A stretch of DNA of 26,287 nucleotides from a virus (IMGVR_UViG_2531839144_000012:1-26287), one strand, 5' to 3'; shown: positions 19,139-26,287, counted from the first letter of the stretch. Numbers and translations are program-made. Notes: generated by a model from the sequence alone, not told the origin.

Positions 19139-19789
19139 TTAGAAGTTCAGATTTTTCAGTGCATTCAGTGCAGAGCCCACATCCTCAGCGTCGCGCAGGG
19201 ACAGTGCGCCATAGCCCCCGGCCATGAATGCTTTGGCCTGGGTACGGGAGAGTCCGACATCACGCAGGACTCTTTCGATTTTTTTCTGTTCAGGGATTTC
19301 CCCGCGGGCCAGCGCGTTCTTGACGTCGCTGATCCGCGCCTCGTCGTTAGACGGAAACGTCACCAGACTGACTTCCCAGAGGTCGATTTCTTTCAGCAAA
19401 AAGGCTTCTTTCGTCCGGTCGTATTCCCAGTCTTTCAGGACGTACCCAATAGAAAGGCCGGTTAACGAACCGGCCTTCATGTGTGCATGTGCGCGTTTTG
19501 CCAGGGGATCATCATCAATGAGCAACCGCCCCCTGACGTAAAGCCCGACATCGTCTTCCTTCATTTCGGTGTAAACTCCGATGGGCTCATCCATGCGGTG
19601 CTGCCAGAGCAGCGCAGGTAACGCTTTTCTGTCACTCCATGCCCGCAGGGAAGCAGCAAATGCCCCGGACATCACCACATCATCGTGGCTGTCCTTTACA
19701 CCAAAGACGGAGCCATACCCTTCAAACTCACCGGAGTCACTGACAGATTTCAGACTCAGCGGTACATCAAGACGTTGTTTCGTCTGCAT
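19139..19789 (-). CDS. Prohead protease, HK97 family
   Basis: Start taken at MQTKQRLDVPL (ATG 19789..19787, AAGGA RBS); ORF track start 19825 has no RBS; between portal and capsid. Confidence 0.85.
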   Translation of the reverse strand: MQTKQRLDVPLSLKSVSDSGEFEGYGSVFGVKDSHDDVVMSGAFAASLRAWSDRKALPALLWQHRMDEPIGVYTEMKEDDVGLYVRGRLLIDDDPLAKRAHAHMKAGSLTGLSIGYVLKDWEYDRTKEAFLLKEIDLWEVSLVTFPSNDEARISDVKNALARGEIPEQKKIERVLRDVGLSRTQAKAFMAGGYGALSLRDAEDVGSALNALKNLNF

Positions 19790-21008
19790 TGGCGTTATCC
19801 TTCTGCTTACCGGCTTTACTGCCATCGGAGGGTTTCGTGGTCATGTTCATCGGTGTGAGATAGACATCACCACCGGGACGCGGATTCATATCTTCCAGGT
19901 CGCGGCAGTCATTGGGAGAGTAAATTCCCCAGTTGATCCCGGTGGCGTAGGCTTCAAAACGGGACTTCATATCCCCGCGCAGTAACGCCCCGGCGTTAAA
20001 TTTGGCGTAATAAACGCCCTGCTTACTTTTTCGTACCAGTCCGGTGTTGATCCGCTGTTCGATGCGGGTCAGATACGGCACCAGTGAATAGTTGATAAAT
20101 CCCAGCCCCAGCTCTTCGATATTGTTGAAGGTGGCGCGATCGGTGTTCTGCACCATGTGCAACGGCACCCGGAACAGACGACAGATTTCTTCAAGCTGAA
20201 ACTTGCGGGTTTCCAGGAACTGGCTGTCCTCGGCGTTCAGCGCCATCGACTTCCAGTCCAGCCCCATCTCAAGGATCATCGGGCGGTGAGCATTGCCAAG
20301 CCCGGTGTGACGCTCCTCAAAATCTTTCTTCAGGCGCTCATAAGCCTGATCTGACAGCGTCTGCTCTGTACGCAACACACCCGACGTCACCGCGCCATTG
20401 CTGAACAGTCTGGCCCCGTGCTCTTCGGTCGCTGCCGCCAGCGATATTGCCTCGCGGGCATAGGCGATGGGATTCAGCCCCACCAGTCCGTCCAGCGTCA
20501 GCGTGCGCACATGCCAGATATCCTCCTGGCTCAGTACATCCGTGGAGCCATCCGGGAATGTGACCTGATAGATCGGCTCCCAGCTACTGTTAAGCTTCGG
20601 TACCACACAGCCGGGATCGACGGGCAGCAGTTCAGCCACTTCGCCAAATGCTTTCACTTTGTAGGCGTAAAAGTTTCCCCGCAGGCACAGACAGGTGACC
20701 ACCAGCTCCCAGAACTCCTGTGGCGTCATATAGCCATTGGGATGCGTGGAGATCAGCTTATGCAGACGTTCGCCAGTGGCTCTCTGCTTCAGGCTGCCGT
20801 TCAGGTGATACAGGTTGCAGGGCAACATCCCGACCGACTCTGCCAGCACCCTGACACAGGAAAAAACCGCCGTCAGTCGCATGGCCCGCTGGCTGCTGAT
20901 CTGCTTTCCGGTATAGGTGTCGTAGGACAACCCGATAGCATCCGCCAGCTCTGCTGGCGTGGTCATCGGTGCGTCACTTTTTCGTTGAAATAATCCCGAA
21001 AAGAACAC
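19767..21008 (-). CDS. Portal protein, HK97 family
   Basis: 413-aa ORF; GTG start at 21008 with GGAGG RBS (alternative ATG at 20966); downstream of large terminase. Confidence 0.85.
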   Translation of the reverse strand: MFFSGLFQRKSDAPMTTPAELADAIGLSYDTYTGKQISSQRAMRLTAVFSCVRVLAESVGMLPCNLYHLNGSLKQRATGERLHKLISTHPNGYMTPQEFWELVVTCLCLRGNFYAYKVKAFGEVAELLPVDPGCVVPKLNSSWEPIYQVTFPDGSTDVLSQEDIWHVRTLTLDGLVGLNPIAYAREAISLAAATEEHGARLFSNGAVTSGVLRTEQTLSDQAYERLKKDFEERHTGLGNAHRPMILEMGLDWKSMALNAEDSQFLETRKFQLEEICRLFRVPLHMVQNTDRATFNNIEELGLGFINYSLVPYLTRIEQRINTGLVRKSKQGVYYAKFNAGALLRGDMKSRFEAYATGINWGIYSPNDCRDLEDMNPRPGGDVYLTPMNMTTKPSDGSKAGKQKDNANADETTS

Positions 21009-21201: not shown

Positions 21202-22935
21202 TTAAAGCGAGCGGATCCCATAGGACTCAATGTGGTCAGACAACGTGTCTTCTTTCTCGTACAGCATGGCTCTGCCAACCGCCATAATCAGCGCAACTGC
21301 ACCATCGATTTTGTTTTCCGCCTGCTCTTTGACGGGCTTCACTAAATCATCGTTACCTGGCATGTTTTTGCCGACCACATTGCCGATACACCAGGTCATG
21401 ATGGGATTGCCGTCATGATGAAAGCGTCCCGATTCAATCGCTGCCTCCAGCTCTTTCATCGGGTCGGACATATTGGCGAAGTTCTGGACTATAGTAACGG
21501 GATTCAGGTCTTCATCAGCAAGGTCATGTGACAGCCCGGTCGCTCCGAAAGGGTCGATGGGTGACTCACTGACCGGGCTGATTTTGTTCGCCGCTTTGGC
21601 CTCTTCGAGGATGTAGCGATAATCCACCTCTGCACCATCGGTAACGGTCAGAACGCCCATTTCCACCCATTTCTGAAAGCGTTCGGCTGTCCGGCGATCT
21701 TCATTTTTCTCGACGCTATACACCGTGTCATACGGTACCCAGAAACGCGGGGCCACACTGTAGTAATGCGTTTTACCGTCAATCTCGCGGGTATAAAGTC
21801 GCGCCATGCTGTTCATATCCAGCTTACGCGCCAGGTCAAAGGCCAGAATGCACGGCTGCCCCTCGAACTGCTCAAGAGTCAGTGATTTATCCTCGCAGCT
21901 CTGCCAGCTCACCAGGTTGAAATACGCCGAACGCGCCGACACCCAGATATTGAGGTGTTTTGTTTTAAAGACGTTTGCCAGACGGGCGTTATTTTTCGCA
22001 CGCTGCTGCTGACTTAACAAAAATTCGCGATAAACCGACACGCCAATATTTGGATTGGCTTTTTCCAGCACCTGCGGGTCGGTCCAGTCGTCACCTTCAT
22101 CAACGGTATAGATGATCCCGAACAGTTCATCGTTAGGCACCGAGCCGTTGAGCATCTCGATGACTTCCCGCCGTTTGTCGTAGCACGGCCCCTCAATGTT
22201 GTACCCGGCGGTGGTGATGGCCCACATCAGTGGCTGACGTCGCGCCCCCATCCCGGTAAGCATTGTGGTATAAAGCGCATCGGTGGCATGCTCGTGATAT
22301 TCATCAACCACGGCACAGTGGGGTGATGAACCATCACCTGGGTTGCCGATCAGCGGTTCAAACCGCGCGCCATCCTCCGGACGGTTCATGTTTGAGGCGT
22401 TAACCTCAATCCCGAAAGCTTCCGTCAGCATGGGTGTGCGTTTACACATCAGTCGCGCCGGGCGAAAGACTTCCCACGCCTGTTTCTCTGTCGTGGCACC
22501 GGAATACACTTCCGCGCCAAACTCGTTATCACAGGCAAAACAATACAGGGCGACACCGGCAGAGATTGCCGATTTGCCGTTCTTACGGGGGATTTCGGTA
22601 TACACCTCACGGAAGCGGCGCAGCCGGGAGCCTTTATTGACCCAGCCAAACGCACAGCAGATCACAAAGAGCTGCCACGGTTCCAGCGTGATGGGCATCC
22701 TCTTGAATGCCCACTCCCCCTTGGTGTGTGGCAACAGCTGAATAAATTTCGCGGCCCGTTCAGCCAGGTCCTTGTCGAAGCGGTAACGAAACGACTTACT
22801 TTTTTCCGCCATCAGGTCATCAAGATGGCGCTGGCAGGCCTGAATCACAAACTGGCAGGCCACAATCTTTCCGCGCACGACATCACGGGCATACTGATTG
22901 GCAGCATTTACGTTGGGGTAAGATTTCCGGCTCAT
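21202..22935 (-). CDS. Terminase large subunit
   Basis: 577-aa ORF with ATPase region (PRKNGKS Walker A-like) and C-terminal nuclease region; ATGA overlap with small subunit stop. Confidence 0.9.
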
Positions 22936-23426
22936 GATTCGATGATTTTCAGAAACGGGTTAGTGGCTTTCTTCTGCCCCGCCAGGCCAATCAGACGCTG
23001 GCGGCTGCTGGGGTCGAGTCCGAGCATTGCCCCCGTGCTGCTCATCTCGGACTCCTGTTCTTTCTTGGCGGTCAGCTCCGGATTTTTGACCATACCGCCC
23101 ATTGCACCGGTGATGGTGTTGCCCTGTCTGGCAATATTTTTCACGGCACGTCGCCAGAACTCATAGGCCACGCACCACCGCTCAAGTACCGCTAGGTCAG
23201 TCACGCACAGCAGGCCCTGACCGCAGAGTTCTTTGGTTGTCAGTTGCCACATGATCGTGGCGAGAGGGAGATCCTCTTCAGCGAACCACTCCGGTGGCTC
23301 AACACCTTTGATGGGCGTAAAAACAGGTTCATCTTTGTTCAGGGCTCGCTTGCCGGGGTTTCCGGACAGCGCCTTGCGCGCCGTTGGCTTGGGGCGACGC
23401 CCGGAACGCCCCGCCGTTCCAGCCAT
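22932..23426 (-). CDS. Terminase small subunit (P27-like)
   Basis: Start ATG 23426..23424 preceded by AGGAG; basic N-terminus [14 protein letters not shown]; immediately upstream of large terminase. Confidence 0.75.
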
Positions 23427-23464
23427 ATGCGGCACTCCTGGTTAAATTTCATTTTTCGCGGGTA

Positions 23465-23525
23465 TAAAAAAACGATGGGGCGGGCAGTCCGGAAGACGTC
23501 AGGTCACAGAGATTTGACCCGCCCC
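23465..23525 (-). terminator. GC-rich stem (GGGGCGGG...CCCGCCCC) with T7 tract on minus strand between HNH and terminase small subunit; candidate terminator and/or part of cos region
   Basis: 8-bp G/C stem with inner GGTCA/TGACC pairing and run of 7 T on minus strand seen directly. Confidence 0.35.
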
Positions 23526-23551
23526 TCCCCTCAGACAGTTGAGAATTATTA

Positions 23552-23902
23552 TCACTTTAGCCGTTCACGGGCCGTCTTCGCCTTATGACACGGCCAGCAC
23601 AAACTCTGCAGATTGCAGTCAGCATCAGTGCCGCCATGCGCTTTAGGGATAATGTGGTCAACGGTTTTCGCCTCACGCACCACACCGGCACGCAGGCACA
23701 ACTGGCACAGGCCTTTGTCACGCTTCAGCACACGCGCGCGGATAACGTCCCACTTCGAACCATAACCGCGCTGGTGTCGGGACTGTCCAGGTTTGTACTG
23801 CTTCCAGCCTTCGCTTTTGTGGCTTTCGCAGTAGCCTGACGGGTCTGTGGTTGTAGAGCGGCAGCCGCGAACACGGCAGGCTTTTGGGGTTCGTGAGGGC
23901 AT
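23552..23902 (-). CDS. HNH endonuclease (terminase-associated)
   Basis: 116-aa Cys/His-rich protein with DHIIPKAHGG and CWPCH motifs; placed immediately upstream of terminase genes as in HK97-like phages. Confidence 0.8.
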   Translation of the reverse strand: MPSRTPKACRVRGCRSTTTDPSGYCESHKSEGWKQYKPGQSRHQRGYGSKWDVIRARVLKRDKGLCQLCLRAGVVREAKTVDHIIPKAHGGTDADCNLQSLCWPCHKAKTARERLK

Positions 23903-24077: not shown

Positions 24078-24626
24078 ATGTTTGATTTTACTCATTTTGA
24101 AGAGTTGACTTTAGCATCACATCAACCCGATAGAATAATGACTATAGTTCGGTCCCAAGATGACATTGGTATCTATCTCCGCACTCACCTTTTGATTGAA
24201 CAAATCTTGGAAGCTTGGATTATCTGTGCCTCTGGTAACAGGGATTTCTTCAGCGGTTTTGGCGAAAATATCAACATGGATTTTGCCATTAAAGCTCAGC
24301 TTGCGATGAACTATGGTATGAGCTCAGAGCTAAACAAATTTATTCGAAGGTTCAACAACTTCAGAAACAAACGTTCACATCAAATTAACAACTCTGACAT
24401 CACTAACAGTGAGATTGACTCCTTAACAAGTCTAATGGAGCACGGTTACCCTGATAGCTTGACCCCCATTAGAGATTTTAAGCTTGGGGTTTACGGAGCA
24501 GAAACTAGGGTTGTAAGTTTCACGGGATCCTCTACAAGCTTACGCGATAAGCTCATTATGTTATTCGCTATGTTTTCCATGAGGGTACATTACGAAGCAA
24601 AATGCTTAAGCACGCCACAGAGCTAG
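24078..24626 (+). CDS. Hypothetical protein with Rx4H (HEPN-like) motif; first gene of AT-rich two-gene insert
   Basis: 182-aa ORF with AAGGA RBS; motif FRNKRSHQ; opposite strand to flanking phage late genes; AT-rich. Confidence 0.55.
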   Translation: MFDFTHFEELTLASHQPDRIMTIVRSQDDIGIYLRTHLLIEQILEAWIICASGNRDFFSGFGENINMDFAIKAQLAMNYGMSSELNKFIRRFNNFRNKRSHQINNSDITNSEIDSLTSLMEHGYPDSLTPIRDFKLGVYGAETRVVSFTGSSTSLRDKLIMLFAMFSMRVHYEAKCLSTPQS

Positions 24627-24704
24627 GCTCTACTTTGATGCTCTAATAACATTCGATTATTTGCATTTCCTGTTGCATTAGCGACCTGCCATTGAGGAGT
24701 AAAA

Positions 24705-25265
24705 ATGATCCATACGGTACATTTTTTGACAGATGTTACAGTTGCCTCTGTAACTAATCTGATGGATGTCTGCTTAAAAGCAGTTTCAAATACTAATCAA
24801 CCAGCAACAGAAATTAAGCTCTATATTTCCAGCAAAGGTGGAGATACAGTTTCAGGCTTTACTGCTTACAATTTTTTAAAGTCACTTGGTGTAAAGGTTA
24901 CTACGCATAACCTCAGTAATGTTGAATCAATCGCAAACGTGATCTATATGGCTGGAGAAGTGCGAACTGCCAACCCACTTTCTCGCTTCCTTCTTCACCC
25001 ACTGCATTGGGGGTTCGCCGCACCCAGCGCAGATCACCTACGATTGAGAGAATGGGCTTCATGCCTCGATGACGATCTAAATCGATTTATTCAAATCATG
25101 GATATTGAAACAAAAAAGAAAAATCCAAGTGAGATTGCTGATTGGAAGGATTTGATCACTTCGGCAACCATCCTTCATCCCGGAAGGGCCTCCGAGTTGG
25201 GAATTGTTCATCAAGTCGAGGCTGCAACCATACCCACGGAATCGATCCGCTGGTGGGTACTTTAA
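24705..25265 (+). CDS. ClpP-family (S14-like) serine protease homologue, short form
   Basis: 186 aa; aligns by eye to E. coli ClpP core: IKLYISSKGG vs IYLYINSPGG, Ser in NVESI vs QAASM, His in LLHP vs MIHQP, Asp in KDL vs RDRF; GAGGAG RBS. Confidence 0.65.
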   Translation: MIHTVHFLTDVTVASVTNLMDVCLKAVSNTNQPATEIKLYISSKGGDTVSGFTAYNFLKSLGVKVTTHNLSNVESIANVIYMAGEVRTANPLSRFLLHPLHWGFAAPSADHLRLREWASCLDDDLNRFIQIMDIETKKKNPSEIADWKDLITSATILHPGRASELGIVHQVEAATIPTESIRWWVL

Positions 25266-25286: not shown

Positions 25287-25313
25287 GCGGGCTTAGAAGC
25301 CCGCTCTTTTTTT
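25287..25313 (+). terminator. Rho-independent terminator (GCGGGC-TTAGAA-GCCCGC + TCTTTTTTT) between convergent ClpP-like and Rz1 genes
   Basis: Perfect GC-rich stem and 7-T run seen directly; Rz1 stop codon lies in the loop. Confidence 0.6.
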
Positions 25314-25550
25314 CTCAGCCTGCCTGATATCAGCCTTATCCCGATTGCACTGGCCAAGTGCCGATAGCAGACTGACATTTAAATTAAGACTATTACCCCA
25401 TGTCATATTATCCGGAATGTCAGGATAAGGCGTTTCAGCCGTCAGGGTGGCTGGTAACGGAACCACCGGAATGCTCACGTAAACTGTTCGCGTACTTCCG
25501 CAACCGGTCAGCAGCGGCAGCAGGCACATGACGTGAAGCACAATCATCAT
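25293..25550 (-). CDS. Rz1: o-spanin (Rz1-like outer membrane lipoprotein), overlapping Rz
   Basis: Start at tandem ATGs 25550/25547; signal peptide with lipobox LLTGC; Pro-rich mature region; begins in the +1 frame inside Rz and extends past it. Confidence 0.6.
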   Translation of the reverse strand: MMIVLHVMCLLPLLTGCGSTRTVYVSIPVVPLPATLTAETPYPDIPDNMTWGNSLNLNVSLLSALGQCNRDKADIRQAEKKRAGF

Positions 25551-25827
25551 CCGCAACAGCCACTTTGATATCTTCCTGGGTTCTCTGTGACTCCAGTGTG
25601 ATCTGCTGTTTTGCATGCTGGTTAGCCTCCAGAACTGTATTGACGATTTGCAGTGATTGCAGGACGTTATTGGTAATGACAGTTGCCGATTTGGCATTTT
25701 GTACAGCCTCATCAGCACGTTTCTTTTCGTGCTGATATTTGCTGTAGTAGTGGTTGGCAGACCAGATGAAAGAACCGATGACAGTAAAGAAGAATGCAGC
25801 GATAACCAGCTTATAGCTCAACTTCAT
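25435..25827 (-). CDS. Rz: i-spanin (Rz-like)
   Basis: 130-aa protein with N-terminal TM helix and coiled-coil-like periplasmic domain; immediately downstream of endolysin. Confidence 0.7.
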   Translation of the reverse strand: MKLSYKLVIAAFFFTVIGSFIWSANHYYSKYQHEKKRADEAVQNAKSATVITNNVLQSLQIVNTVLEANQHAKQQITLESQRTQEDIKVAVADDDCASRHVPAAAADRLRKYANSLREHSGGSVTSHPDG

Positions 25828-26287
25828 TTACCACCCCACCAGCCTCTTTAAACCGGGAAATCAGGTCACTGATTTTATGTTCATACTGACCATAACCTGC
25901 ACCAGGTAACGACGCCCAGATATTGCTGCAACGATCGATAGCCTGACGGATATCACCGCGATCAATCATCGGTAAAGCGCCACGTTCTTTAATCTGCTGC
26001 AATGCCACTGCGTCCTGGCTTTTGGGGGAGAAGTCTTTCAGGCCAAGCTGCTTACGGTAAGCATCCCACCAGCGTGAAAGAAGCTGATAACGTCCGGCTG
26101 CTGTTGATTTGAGTTTGGGGTTTAGCGTGACAAGCTTGCGAGGGTGATCGGAGTAATCAGTGAAGAGTTCTCCACCGACAATAACATCATAACCGTGGTT
26201 ACGTGTCGGTTGTCGCCCGTTATCCGTTCCTTCTGACCATGCCACCATATCGAGGAAAGCTTTACGCTGAGGATTAAGATTTTGCAT
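25811..26287 (-). CDS. R: Endolysin, lambda R-like lytic transglycosylase
   Basis: 158-aa translation near-identical along most of its length to my recollection of lambda R (QRKAFLDM.AWSEGTDNGRQ.TRNHGYDVIVGGELFTDYSDHPRKLV...); ATG is the last three bases of the window. Confidence 0.9.
   Translation of the reverse strand: MQNLNPQRKAFLDMVAWSEGTDNGRQPTRNHGYDVIVGGELFTDYSDHPRKLVTLNPKLKSTAAGRYQLLSRWWDAYRKQLGLKDFSPKSQDAVALQQIKERGALPMIDRGDIRQAIDRCSNIWASLPGAGYGQYEHKISDLISRFKEAGGVVNEVEL

Follow-up and report, generated by a model that had tools for sequence, protein, structure and literature searches.

A probable HK97-type cos site and its conserved subsites between the HNH endonuclease and small terminase genes of an SfI-like prophage

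We analyzed the gap between the genes for an HNH endonuclease and the small terminase subunit (TerS) in a 26,287-nucleotide stretch of viral DNA (IMGVR_UViG_2531839144_000012:1-26287), the whole of which is called the window below. The late and packaging genes that flank the gap all lie on the minus strand. A preliminary description of the sequence had proposed a structured, GC-rich element in the gap, built around an 8-base-pair (bp) stem and serving either as a cohesive-end packaging site (cos) or as a terminator. Our results indicate that the gap is very probably the cos site of an SfI/SfII/SfV-like prophage, of the HK97 type, assisted by the HNH protein and leaving 3' overhangs, and that the stem arms belong to two separate subsites. 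Read along the minus strand from the end of the HNH gene towards TerS, with + positions counted downstream of the cut, the gap contains the following elements:

23540..23554, minus strand: dyad TGATAATAATTCTCA (7-1-7, Fur-box-like), which starts at the stop codon of HNH
23511..23532, minus strand: G-box GAGGGGAGGGGCGGGTCAAATC, a conserved upstream cos subsite that contains the stem arm 23518-23525 and lies ~31 bp upstream of the cut
23487..23510, minus strand: spacer of fixed length and variable sequence, ending GGAC, with the conserved AC directly 5' of the cut
23486..23487, plus strand: predicted nick 5'-GGGCA^GTCC-3', left boundary of the 10-nucleotide SfI gap, tentatively attributed to HNH
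23477..23486, minus strand: cohesive-end 10-mer 5'-TGCCCGCCCC-3' (cosN), identical to the SfI cohesive end and holding the stem arm 23477-23484
23476..23477, minus strand: predicted nick CCCC^ATCG, right boundary of the SfI gap, tentatively attributed to the TerL nuclease
23466..23472, minus strand: seven-T tract (T7), +5 to +11, a conserved A-tract element of cos
23442..23465, minus strand: cosB-like box ATACCCGCGAAAAATGAAATTTAA, +12 to +35, with CCGCGAAA at 23454-23461; the most conserved block

The identification is carried by end mapping in the Shigella phage SfI. Direct sequencing into both ends of SfI virion DNA left a gap of 10 nucleotides (nt), 5'-TGCCCGCCCC-3', relative to the prophage, and the authors concluded that SfI is packaged by a cos mechanism like that of SfV (PMC3636060); the cos sites of SfI, SfII, SfIV and SfV are identical (PMC3851460). 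This 10-mer occurs exactly at 23477-23486, which upholds the proposal of a cos site and places one arm of the described stem inside the cohesive end. The junction in the window reads ...GAGGGGAGGGGCGGGTCAAATCTCTGTGACCTGACGTCTTCCGGAC|TGCCCGCCCC|ATCGTTTTTTTATACCCGCGAAAAATGAAATTTAACCAGGAGTGCCGCATATG, with the TerS ATG at +51. Position 1 of the SfI record corresponds to window position 23476, and the linear GenBank records of SfV, SfIV, SfI and SfII all start within the gap (megablast). From the G-box through the 10-mer, SfI and the window are the same, with a single mismatch, at +1, over the region compared. End positions are thus shown in SfI, a relative with identical sequence from the G-box through the 10-mer, and virion ends of an HK97-type cos are available for the window by proxy, through SfI.

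The window belongs to a common family. SfII, SfI, SfIV and SfV, which are serotype-converting myophages of Shigella, and likewise Escherichia coli phages such as vB_EcoM-689R6, match it by megablast at 97–98% identity across 54–71% of its length, and a copy of the 134-bp cos region is carried by 1,124 of 5,426 complete E. coli genomes. A near-identical cos region is also present in JAEWTL010000102.1, a 5.6-kilobase contig labeled 'MAG: Bacillota bacterium' whose TerS is 98% identical to that of the window; this contig is probably a piece of an enterobacterial prophage that was binned wrongly.

The polarity of the overhang in the window is suggested by two lines of evidence. First, a gap in both run-off reads implies recessed 5' ends, that is, 3' overhangs, as judged from the method used for SfI. 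Second, homologous sites with proven 3' ends align with it: the ends of phi644-2 and phiE125 are ten-base 3' extensions, with the right end 5'-CGCCCGCTTC-3' (PMC2920897), and in Burkholderia loci CGCCCGCTTC is exactly the aligned 10-mer (GGGAC|CGCCCGCTTC|GTCG). The mapped ends of HK97, phi644-2/phiE125 and phage Gamma all fall in the same alignment columns as the SfI 10-mer, so that the comparison with HK97-like cos sites suggested in the preliminary description comes out in favor of cos. One lineage departs from the pattern: in three loci from Phytopseudomonas and Pseudomonas sp. PA15 the aligned cohesive-end 10-mer is G-rich, not C-rich (GAC|GGGGGGAGCC), and a second GAC|CGCCCGAAC occurs 10 nt upstream, which makes the cut site in that lineage ambiguous.

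Conservation of the gap was analyzed in two sets of loci. The close set comprised 80 IMG/VR loci whose TerS is at least 99% identical to that of the window and yielded 54 gap variants. For the broad set, a TerS alignment was scanned against one genome per species, giving 80 loci with 48–98% TerS identity from Enterobacterales, Pseudomonas, Burkholderia, Comamonas and other genera, and phage records from Burkholderia, Pseudomonas, Moraxella and Klebsiella were added; 80 distinct cos regions were then aligned, and this alignment underlies the column statistics below. Among the 54 close variants, the sequence from TTCCGGAC through the ATG is nearly invariant and the G-box forms a conserved island, with variable stretches upstream of the G-box and between it and TTCCGGAC.

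The broad alignment is almost gapless over 105 nt and resolves the same modules. Information content is 1.21 bits per column for the G-box, 1.38 for the adjoining TCAAA, 0.56 for the spacer, 1.25 for GGAC|YGC (A invariant), 1.48 for the T-tract, 1.62 for the CCGCGAAA box (CCGCG invariant, with the two following A's) and 1.49 for the A/T block after it. AC|YG is conserved at the 5' boundary of the cohesive end, column 50 (A) being invariant and column 51 (C) at least 90% conserved. In column 69 (base 68 of the window row) T is invariant in all 80 loci, whether or not a stem is possible; T7 is a cos element, not a terminator tail. Loci differ in how far CCGCGAAA lies from the TerS start, with tens of extra bases in Xenorhabdus and Photorhabdus, which argues that the boxes are phased to the cut site and not to the gene or its expression. 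The layout of G-box, cut, T-tract and CCGCG box has a formal parallel in PMC13595911, which may be coincidence.

The genes around the gap fit a cos-type packaging module, in the order HNH, cos, TerS, HK97-type large terminase subunit (TerL) and portal, and in this respect the neighborhood is what had been supposed. They are as follows:

~25293-26287, minus strand: lysis genes
23552..23902, minus strand: HNH endonuclease gene; the protein carries a CxxxxC...CxxH zinc ribbon at its N-terminus and the HNH domain at its C-terminus (Pfam HNH PF01844, E 5e-15)
23435-23439, minus strand: ribosome-binding site AGGAG of TerS, 8 nt upstream of the ATG at 23426
22932-23426, minus strand: TerS gene, P27 family (Pfam Terminase_4 PF05119, E 2e-21; TIGR01558, E 2e-21)
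21202-22935, minus strand: TerL gene, HK97 type (Pfam TerL_ATPase, PF03354, and TerL_nuclease, PF20441)
19767-21008, minus strand: portal gene

TerL is placed in the HK97 type by the presence of both PF03354 and PF20441, the same two domains as in HK97 gp2, to which it is 26% identical over its full length (E 1e-30). The HNH protein has the zinc-ribbon-plus-HNH architecture of N.phiGamma, the HNH enzyme of phage Gamma (35% identity, E 5e-16), is 41% identical to HK97 gp74 over 46 amino acids, and has as its top match in the PDB another phage HNH endonuclease (5h0m, E 1.6e-12, full length). The longest TerS open reading frame (ORF) begins with GTG at 23435, but the ATG at 23426 is the more likely start because it has AGGAG 8 nt upstream, agrees with the start of SfV orf1 and gives the N-terminus MAGTAGR common to the closest homologue. 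With this start the gap extends over 23427-23551; it exists as first described but likely measures 125 bp rather than 116 bp.

Among known systems, SfI, SfV, SfII and SfIV are the closest, their flanking HNH and P27-TerS genes being the same as those of the window, which differs from them in the genes between the lysis cassette and HNH (plus-strand ORFs, 24078-25265). The site itself is already known, having been mapped in these near-identical Shigella phages, although publications on the Sf phages describe only the 10-mer and not the flanking subsites.

HK97 has 10-nt 3' overhangs, and its HNH protein gp74 stimulates cos cleavage (PMC9410871, PMC11331095). The junction in its record reads ...GGGCAGGGGGGGGGATCAAATCTTCAAAACCTTTGCCCCAAATGAC|CGCCGCCAAA|GTTTGAATTTAACGCTAACCCGATTTTTTTAG..., with the TerS ATG at +50 (+51 in the window). 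HK97 shares with the window the order HNH, cos, TerS, TerL, with homologous TerL (gp2) and HNH (gp74) proteins, a G-run followed by TCAAATC 31 bp before the cut, GAC directly before the 10-mer, and CCCG plus an A/T-tract downstream of the cut, where HK97 TerS binds. It differs in its cohesive end (CGCCGCCAAA), in the position of the T-tract (+24 to +30, compared with +5 to +11), in a TerS (gp1) that has no detectable similarity in sequence and belongs to no Pfam family, and in gp74, which lacks the N-terminal zinc ribbon of the window HNH (PMC3592412).

Phage Gamma, considered with phi105 and GVE2 as carriers of related cos-linked HNH nickases, resembles the window in the zinc ribbon and HNH domain, in a P27-family TerS and in the placing of GGGTAGGGGCGGGTCGAAA 31 bp upstream of its right end GTAC|CGCCGCCCC. 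The measured CG^GT nick specificity of its enzyme coincides with the overhang boundary (PMC3592412). Unlike the window, Gamma has a Gram-positive host, a 9-nt end in its record, a differing sequence on the TerS side, and CG^GT instead of CA^GT.

Phage lambda is a more distant comparison. Its cos has the same three-part logic of an upstream termination signal, a nick site and a downstream TerS-binding region (PMC4669245), and its cosQ, GGGTCCT, ~23 bp upstream of the nearest cut, resembles the GGGTCAA of the window G-box. Lambda differs in its 12-nt 5' overhang, Nu1/gpA terminase and integration host factor (IHF) sites, and in lacking an HNH protein and a G-run. The hallmarks of a lambda-type cos were not found in the window, where TerS is of the P27 family, TerL of the HK97 type and the overhang 10 nt long and homologous to 3' ends; the two sites are analogous in function only and do not belong to one class.

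The structural part of the preliminary description fared differently. It had specified an 8-bp G/C stem enclosing a GGTCA/TGACC pairing and followed by T7 on the minus strand. The stem sequences are present and perfect: GGGGCGGG at 23477-23484 and CCCGCCCC at 23518-23525 (plus strand) are 8 nt long and 100% complementary, with 33 nt between them. GGTCA (23515-23519) and TGACC (23502-23506) are likewise present on the minus strand, but they are not fully enclosed: two G's, 23518-23519, are common to the outer arm, so both helices cannot form fully, and only TCA/TGA lies inside. T7 (23466-23472) does follow the stem but is not adjacent to it, as 4 nt (ATCG) intervene.

An inverted repeat of this kind is no more than chance gives. 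When the gap was shuffled with dinucleotides preserved, perfect inverted repeats of at least 8 nt (loop 3–60 nt) arose in 6.0% of shuffles, and repeats of the same size were found in 8.6% of 116-nt windows across the 26 kilobases. Folding energies of the gap were ordinary relative to shuffles (z = -0.91 as RNA, z = -1.18 as DNA), and a search of Rfam at a permissive threshold gave no match in the gap. Across the 80 relatives, no covariation was detected for either the outer or the inner stem. Standard pairs occupied 67.1% of outer-stem cells compared with 69.4% ± 0.8 in column shuffles, all 500 of which were at least as highly paired; slid registers gave similar pairing, and a double change was seen at only three pairs. 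Inner-stem pairing was 52.3%, compared with 53.6% in shuffles. The apparent pairing of the arms thus follows from a G-rich block of columns standing opposite a C-rich one. Among the 54 close variants, seven change the upstream arm to GGGGGAGG without a compensating change in the other arm, and HK97, Gamma and phages of Klebsiella, Moraxella and Pseudomonas keep both blocks but not their complementarity. The 8-bp stem is not a functional hairpin, and the claim of a structured element falls with it: each arm belongs to a cos subsite conserved on its own account, one to the G-box and the other to the C-rich cohesive end, and their complementarity in this lineage is a coincidence.

Two further structural candidates were rejected. 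A conserved small dyad in the spacer between G-box and cut, hinted at by Burkholderia, Psychrobacter and Pseudomonas sequences, is not general (mean best stem 4.04 nt, compared with 3.73 in shuffles; p ≤ 0.05 in just 3 of 80 loci), and a G-quadruplex in the G-box is not indicated, as the number and length of G-tracts, judged by eye, do not consistently give four runs of three. As a separate observation, three Burkholderia loci carry a 7–11-bp GC-rich inverted repeat that runs into the 5' part of the G-box (longest form CCCGCCCGGCG-gatg-CGCCGGGCGGG), and one Pseudomonas locus carries a 14-bp inverted repeat with an end in the G-box; in these lineages the G-box is therefore complementary to an upstream partner and not to the cohesive end.

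Three other explanations of the gap were weighed. The arms might be half-sites for a dimeric protein, or form a cruciform recognized by a nuclease. This would suit the perfection of the repeat, the overlap of one arm with the cleavage site and the existence of other repeats involving the G-box in some lineages, such as those of 10–11 bp in Burkholderia. We nevertheless consider it very unlikely, given that the symmetry center (~23501) lies ~15–25 bp from either nick, that the arms do not co-vary, that HK97, Klebsiella, Moraxella, Pseudomonas and Gamma sequences keep the G-box and the AC|CG cut without the complementarity, and that such a repeat is expected by chance in 6–9% of windows.

An intrinsic (Rho-independent) terminator or RNA hairpin, in which the late transcript would be ended or attenuated between HNH and the terminase genes by the GGGGCGGG/CCCGCCCC stem and the U7 after it, was the other half of the preliminary proposal. 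Its appeal is that the minus strand does present an 8-bp G/C stem with T7 4 nt beyond it, and that the minimum-free-energy RNA fold includes this stem. A terminator would be expected to have a 3–8-nt loop and an adjoining U-tract; here the loop is 33 nt, the tract is set off from the stem, and a promoter and terminator scan returned nothing in the gap. Together with the unremarkable fold, the empty Rfam search, the missing covariation and the uncompensated arm changes, the conservation of the T-tract where no stem is possible leaves this reading extremely improbable, and a terminator at this point would separate the structural genes from late transcription. Finally, that the gap is an ordinary intergenic spacer and packaging starts elsewhere or is headful is scarcely credible: the ends have been mapped only in relatives of this prophage, and in Vibrio phage H2 HNH and TerS abut without a gap, so that cos does not always lie between them, but SfI ends map here in sequence identical from the G-box through the 10-mer, the non-coding blocks show extreme gapless conservation across genera, and HK97-type terminases, to which this one belongs, use cos. 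In H2 the homologous HNH and P27-TerS genes are 6 nt apart, and its cos therefore cannot lie between them.

Returning to the interpretation as an HK97-type cos site, the assignment of the nicks draws on enzymes already characterized. Nicking specificities have been measured by Xu and Gupta for phage HNH enzymes encoded beside cos and terminase genes (PMC3592412): both N.phiGamma and N.phiE2 nick CG^GT, or AC^CG when the opposite strand is read, and N.phi105 nicks YG^GTY. The conserved AC|YG is the CG^GT site read on the opposite strand, which puts the corresponding nick in the window at 23486|23487 on the plus strand. A published model divides the nicking of the two strands between HNH and TerL (PMC12967558, PMC11331095). 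Whether HNH cuts the plus strand and TerL the minus strand (23477|23476) in the window is, in our estimate, evenly poised.

Downstream of the cut, the ATACCCGCGAAAAATGAAATTTAA box is the probable binding site of the P27-family TerS, judging from its position and conservation. HK97 TerS recognizes a 15-bp site at +15 to +29, CTAACCCGATTTTTTT, in which a G:C pair at position 21 and an A-tract are read by shape (PMC11331095); the ATACCCGCGAAAAATGAAATTTAA box is placed where this site lies, and the downstream block is the most conserved among phages that share a P27-family TerS. Phage Gamma, which also has a TerS of this family, carries CGCAGAAAAAT at +9 to +19. A profile search of the window TerS against the PDB found nothing; its AlphaFold model has a predicted local distance difference test (pLDDT) score of 75.6.

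These elements suggest a working scheme. TerS would bind the downstream T-tract/CCGCGAAA box and position TerL and HNH at the cut. The plus strand would be nicked at 5'-GGGCA^GTCC-3' (23486|23487), probably by HNH, and the minus strand 10 nt away (23477|23476), probably by TerL, to give 10-nt 3' cohesive ends. Packaging would then run towards TerS, TerL and portal and stop at the next cos site, where the motor would meet the G-box first, so that the G-box may act like cosQ of lambda.

Several points weigh against parts of this interpretation. The end mapping comes from the relative SfI and not from virions of this prophage, and the SfI paper states no overhang polarity, the 3' assignment being drawn from the method and from homologous systems. 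A role for the G-box is suggested by comparison. Both HK97 gp74 (PMC3592412) and sk1 HrdP (PMC12967558) are non-specific nucleases when alone, and gp74 has been described as stimulating terminase-mediated cos cleavage (PMC13595911), which makes assignment of the AC|YG nick to HNH uncertain; in addition, the window has AC|TG (CA^GT), one mismatch from the CGGT core. For TerS, BLASTP against HK97 gp1 gave no similarity, and in a Foldseek search of the PDB the HK97 TerS chains had the highest target-length template-modeling (TM) scores, 0.42–0.50, with weak E values of 1.3–3. Given this lack of clear similarity to gp1, the DNA-binding model of HK97 is not simply transferable.

The G-box extends beyond phages with close relatives of the window TerS. 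At least 10 G in 14 nt are found at -52 to -27 in 75 of the 80 aligned loci, compared with 0.3% of background windows. We further checked nine other phages with 3' cos ends (HK97, Gamma, mycobacteriophages 244 and L5, phi3626, D3, phi105, sk1 and phiC31), and all nine have a G- or C-rich box at the right end, with the spacing readable in eight. The Gamma record ends ...GGGTAGGGGCGGGTCGAAAAACATTCAGGGCGGTCTGTCCGTAC|CGCCGCCCC; mycobacteriophage 244 has ...GAGGGGGTGGGGGTGG-31 nt-...GGGGAC|CGCTTGTCA; Clostridium phage phi3626, whose cohesive end is annotated in its record, has ...GGGGAGGGGTAGGG-29 nt-...GGT|CGCAGTGTC; D3 has GGGGTGGGGCGGGTCAAAAC...GACAC|CGCGCCCCC; and L5 has GAAGGGGTAGGGGGG-25 nt-...GAC|CGGTCGGTTA. 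In phi105 and sk1 a C-run replaces the G-run, 30 nt upstream of the cut, and in phiC31 the G-box directly follows the HNH stop codon, with unclear spacing. Geobacillus phage E2 was considered as an additional anchor and dropped as uninformative, its record not ending at cos. The spacing between box and nick is mostly 29–32 nt for an AC|CG-type nick (25 nt in L5), and the phages with a box infect Proteobacteria (this prophage, HK97, D3 and phiE125-like phages), Firmicutes (Gamma, phi3626, phi105 and sk1) and Actinobacteria (244, L5 and phiC31).

On the basis of these sequence comparisons we tentatively suggest, as a generalization that may well not hold, that a G/C-box ~29–32 bp (about three helical turns) before an AC|CG nick could serve generally as a cis-element wherever HK97-type terminases cut cos sites with 3' overhangs. 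HK97, whose TerS has no Pfam family, retains the G-box, as do phages with differing downstream sequences, and binding of HK97 TerS has been mapped only downstream of the cut (PMC11331095). The persistence of the G-box despite differing TerS proteins, and this downstream-only binding, make TerL and/or HNH the likelier readers, and we propose that the G-box may be a cosQ-like signal for one or both of them rather than for TerS. Lambda cosQ is needed for nicking at termination (PMC4669245), and the location of the G-box on the last-packaged side of the cut appears to parallel it.

A further element, the Fur-box-like dyad TGATAATAATTCTCA, is separated by 7 nt from the 22-nt G-box downstream of it and by 14 nt from the G core of that box. 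The motif TGA[GT]A-N5-T[CA]TCA, with at most one mismatch, occurs in 31 of 79 diverse cos loci, ending 5–20 nt upstream of the G core, compared with 0.0034 per locus expected from background. HK97 and D3 have the motif too, and lambda has a perfect copy of the dyad, TGATAATCATTATCA (76-90 of the sequence compared), 6 nt upstream of cosQ; the motif scan did not find it in Xenorhabdus, Photorhabdus or Burkholderia loci. Its reader might be host Fur or a packaging factor, and its sharing with lambda hints at a further conserved factor. A literature search on the dyad motif returned nothing relevant, and in the literature searched we found no description of the fixed G-box spacing, of the AC|YG rule across phyla or of the dyad shared with lambda.

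For the window itself, the result amounts to routine annotation, which establishes where the genome ends lie in a very common prophage family of E. coli and Shigella and corrects a tempting hairpin or terminator reading. Its wider value lies in the gapless modular layout of G-box, ~31 bp, AC|YG, 9–11-nt 3' overhang and TerS box. If the G-box and AC|YG rule is true, cos ends and their polarity would be predictable from sequence in prophages and metagenomic contigs, and concrete sites would become available for testing which nick is made by HNH and which by TerL.

Elsewhere in the window, two ORFs lie on the opposite strand between the lysis cassette and HNH (24078-24626 and 24705-25265, both plus strand). 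No family was matched by one of them; the other resembles ClpP (Pfam CLP_protease, E 2e-12) and scores far under the NCBIfam cut-offs for head-maturation protease. PADLOC gave no matches for either, and the two may form a moron or accessory cassette.

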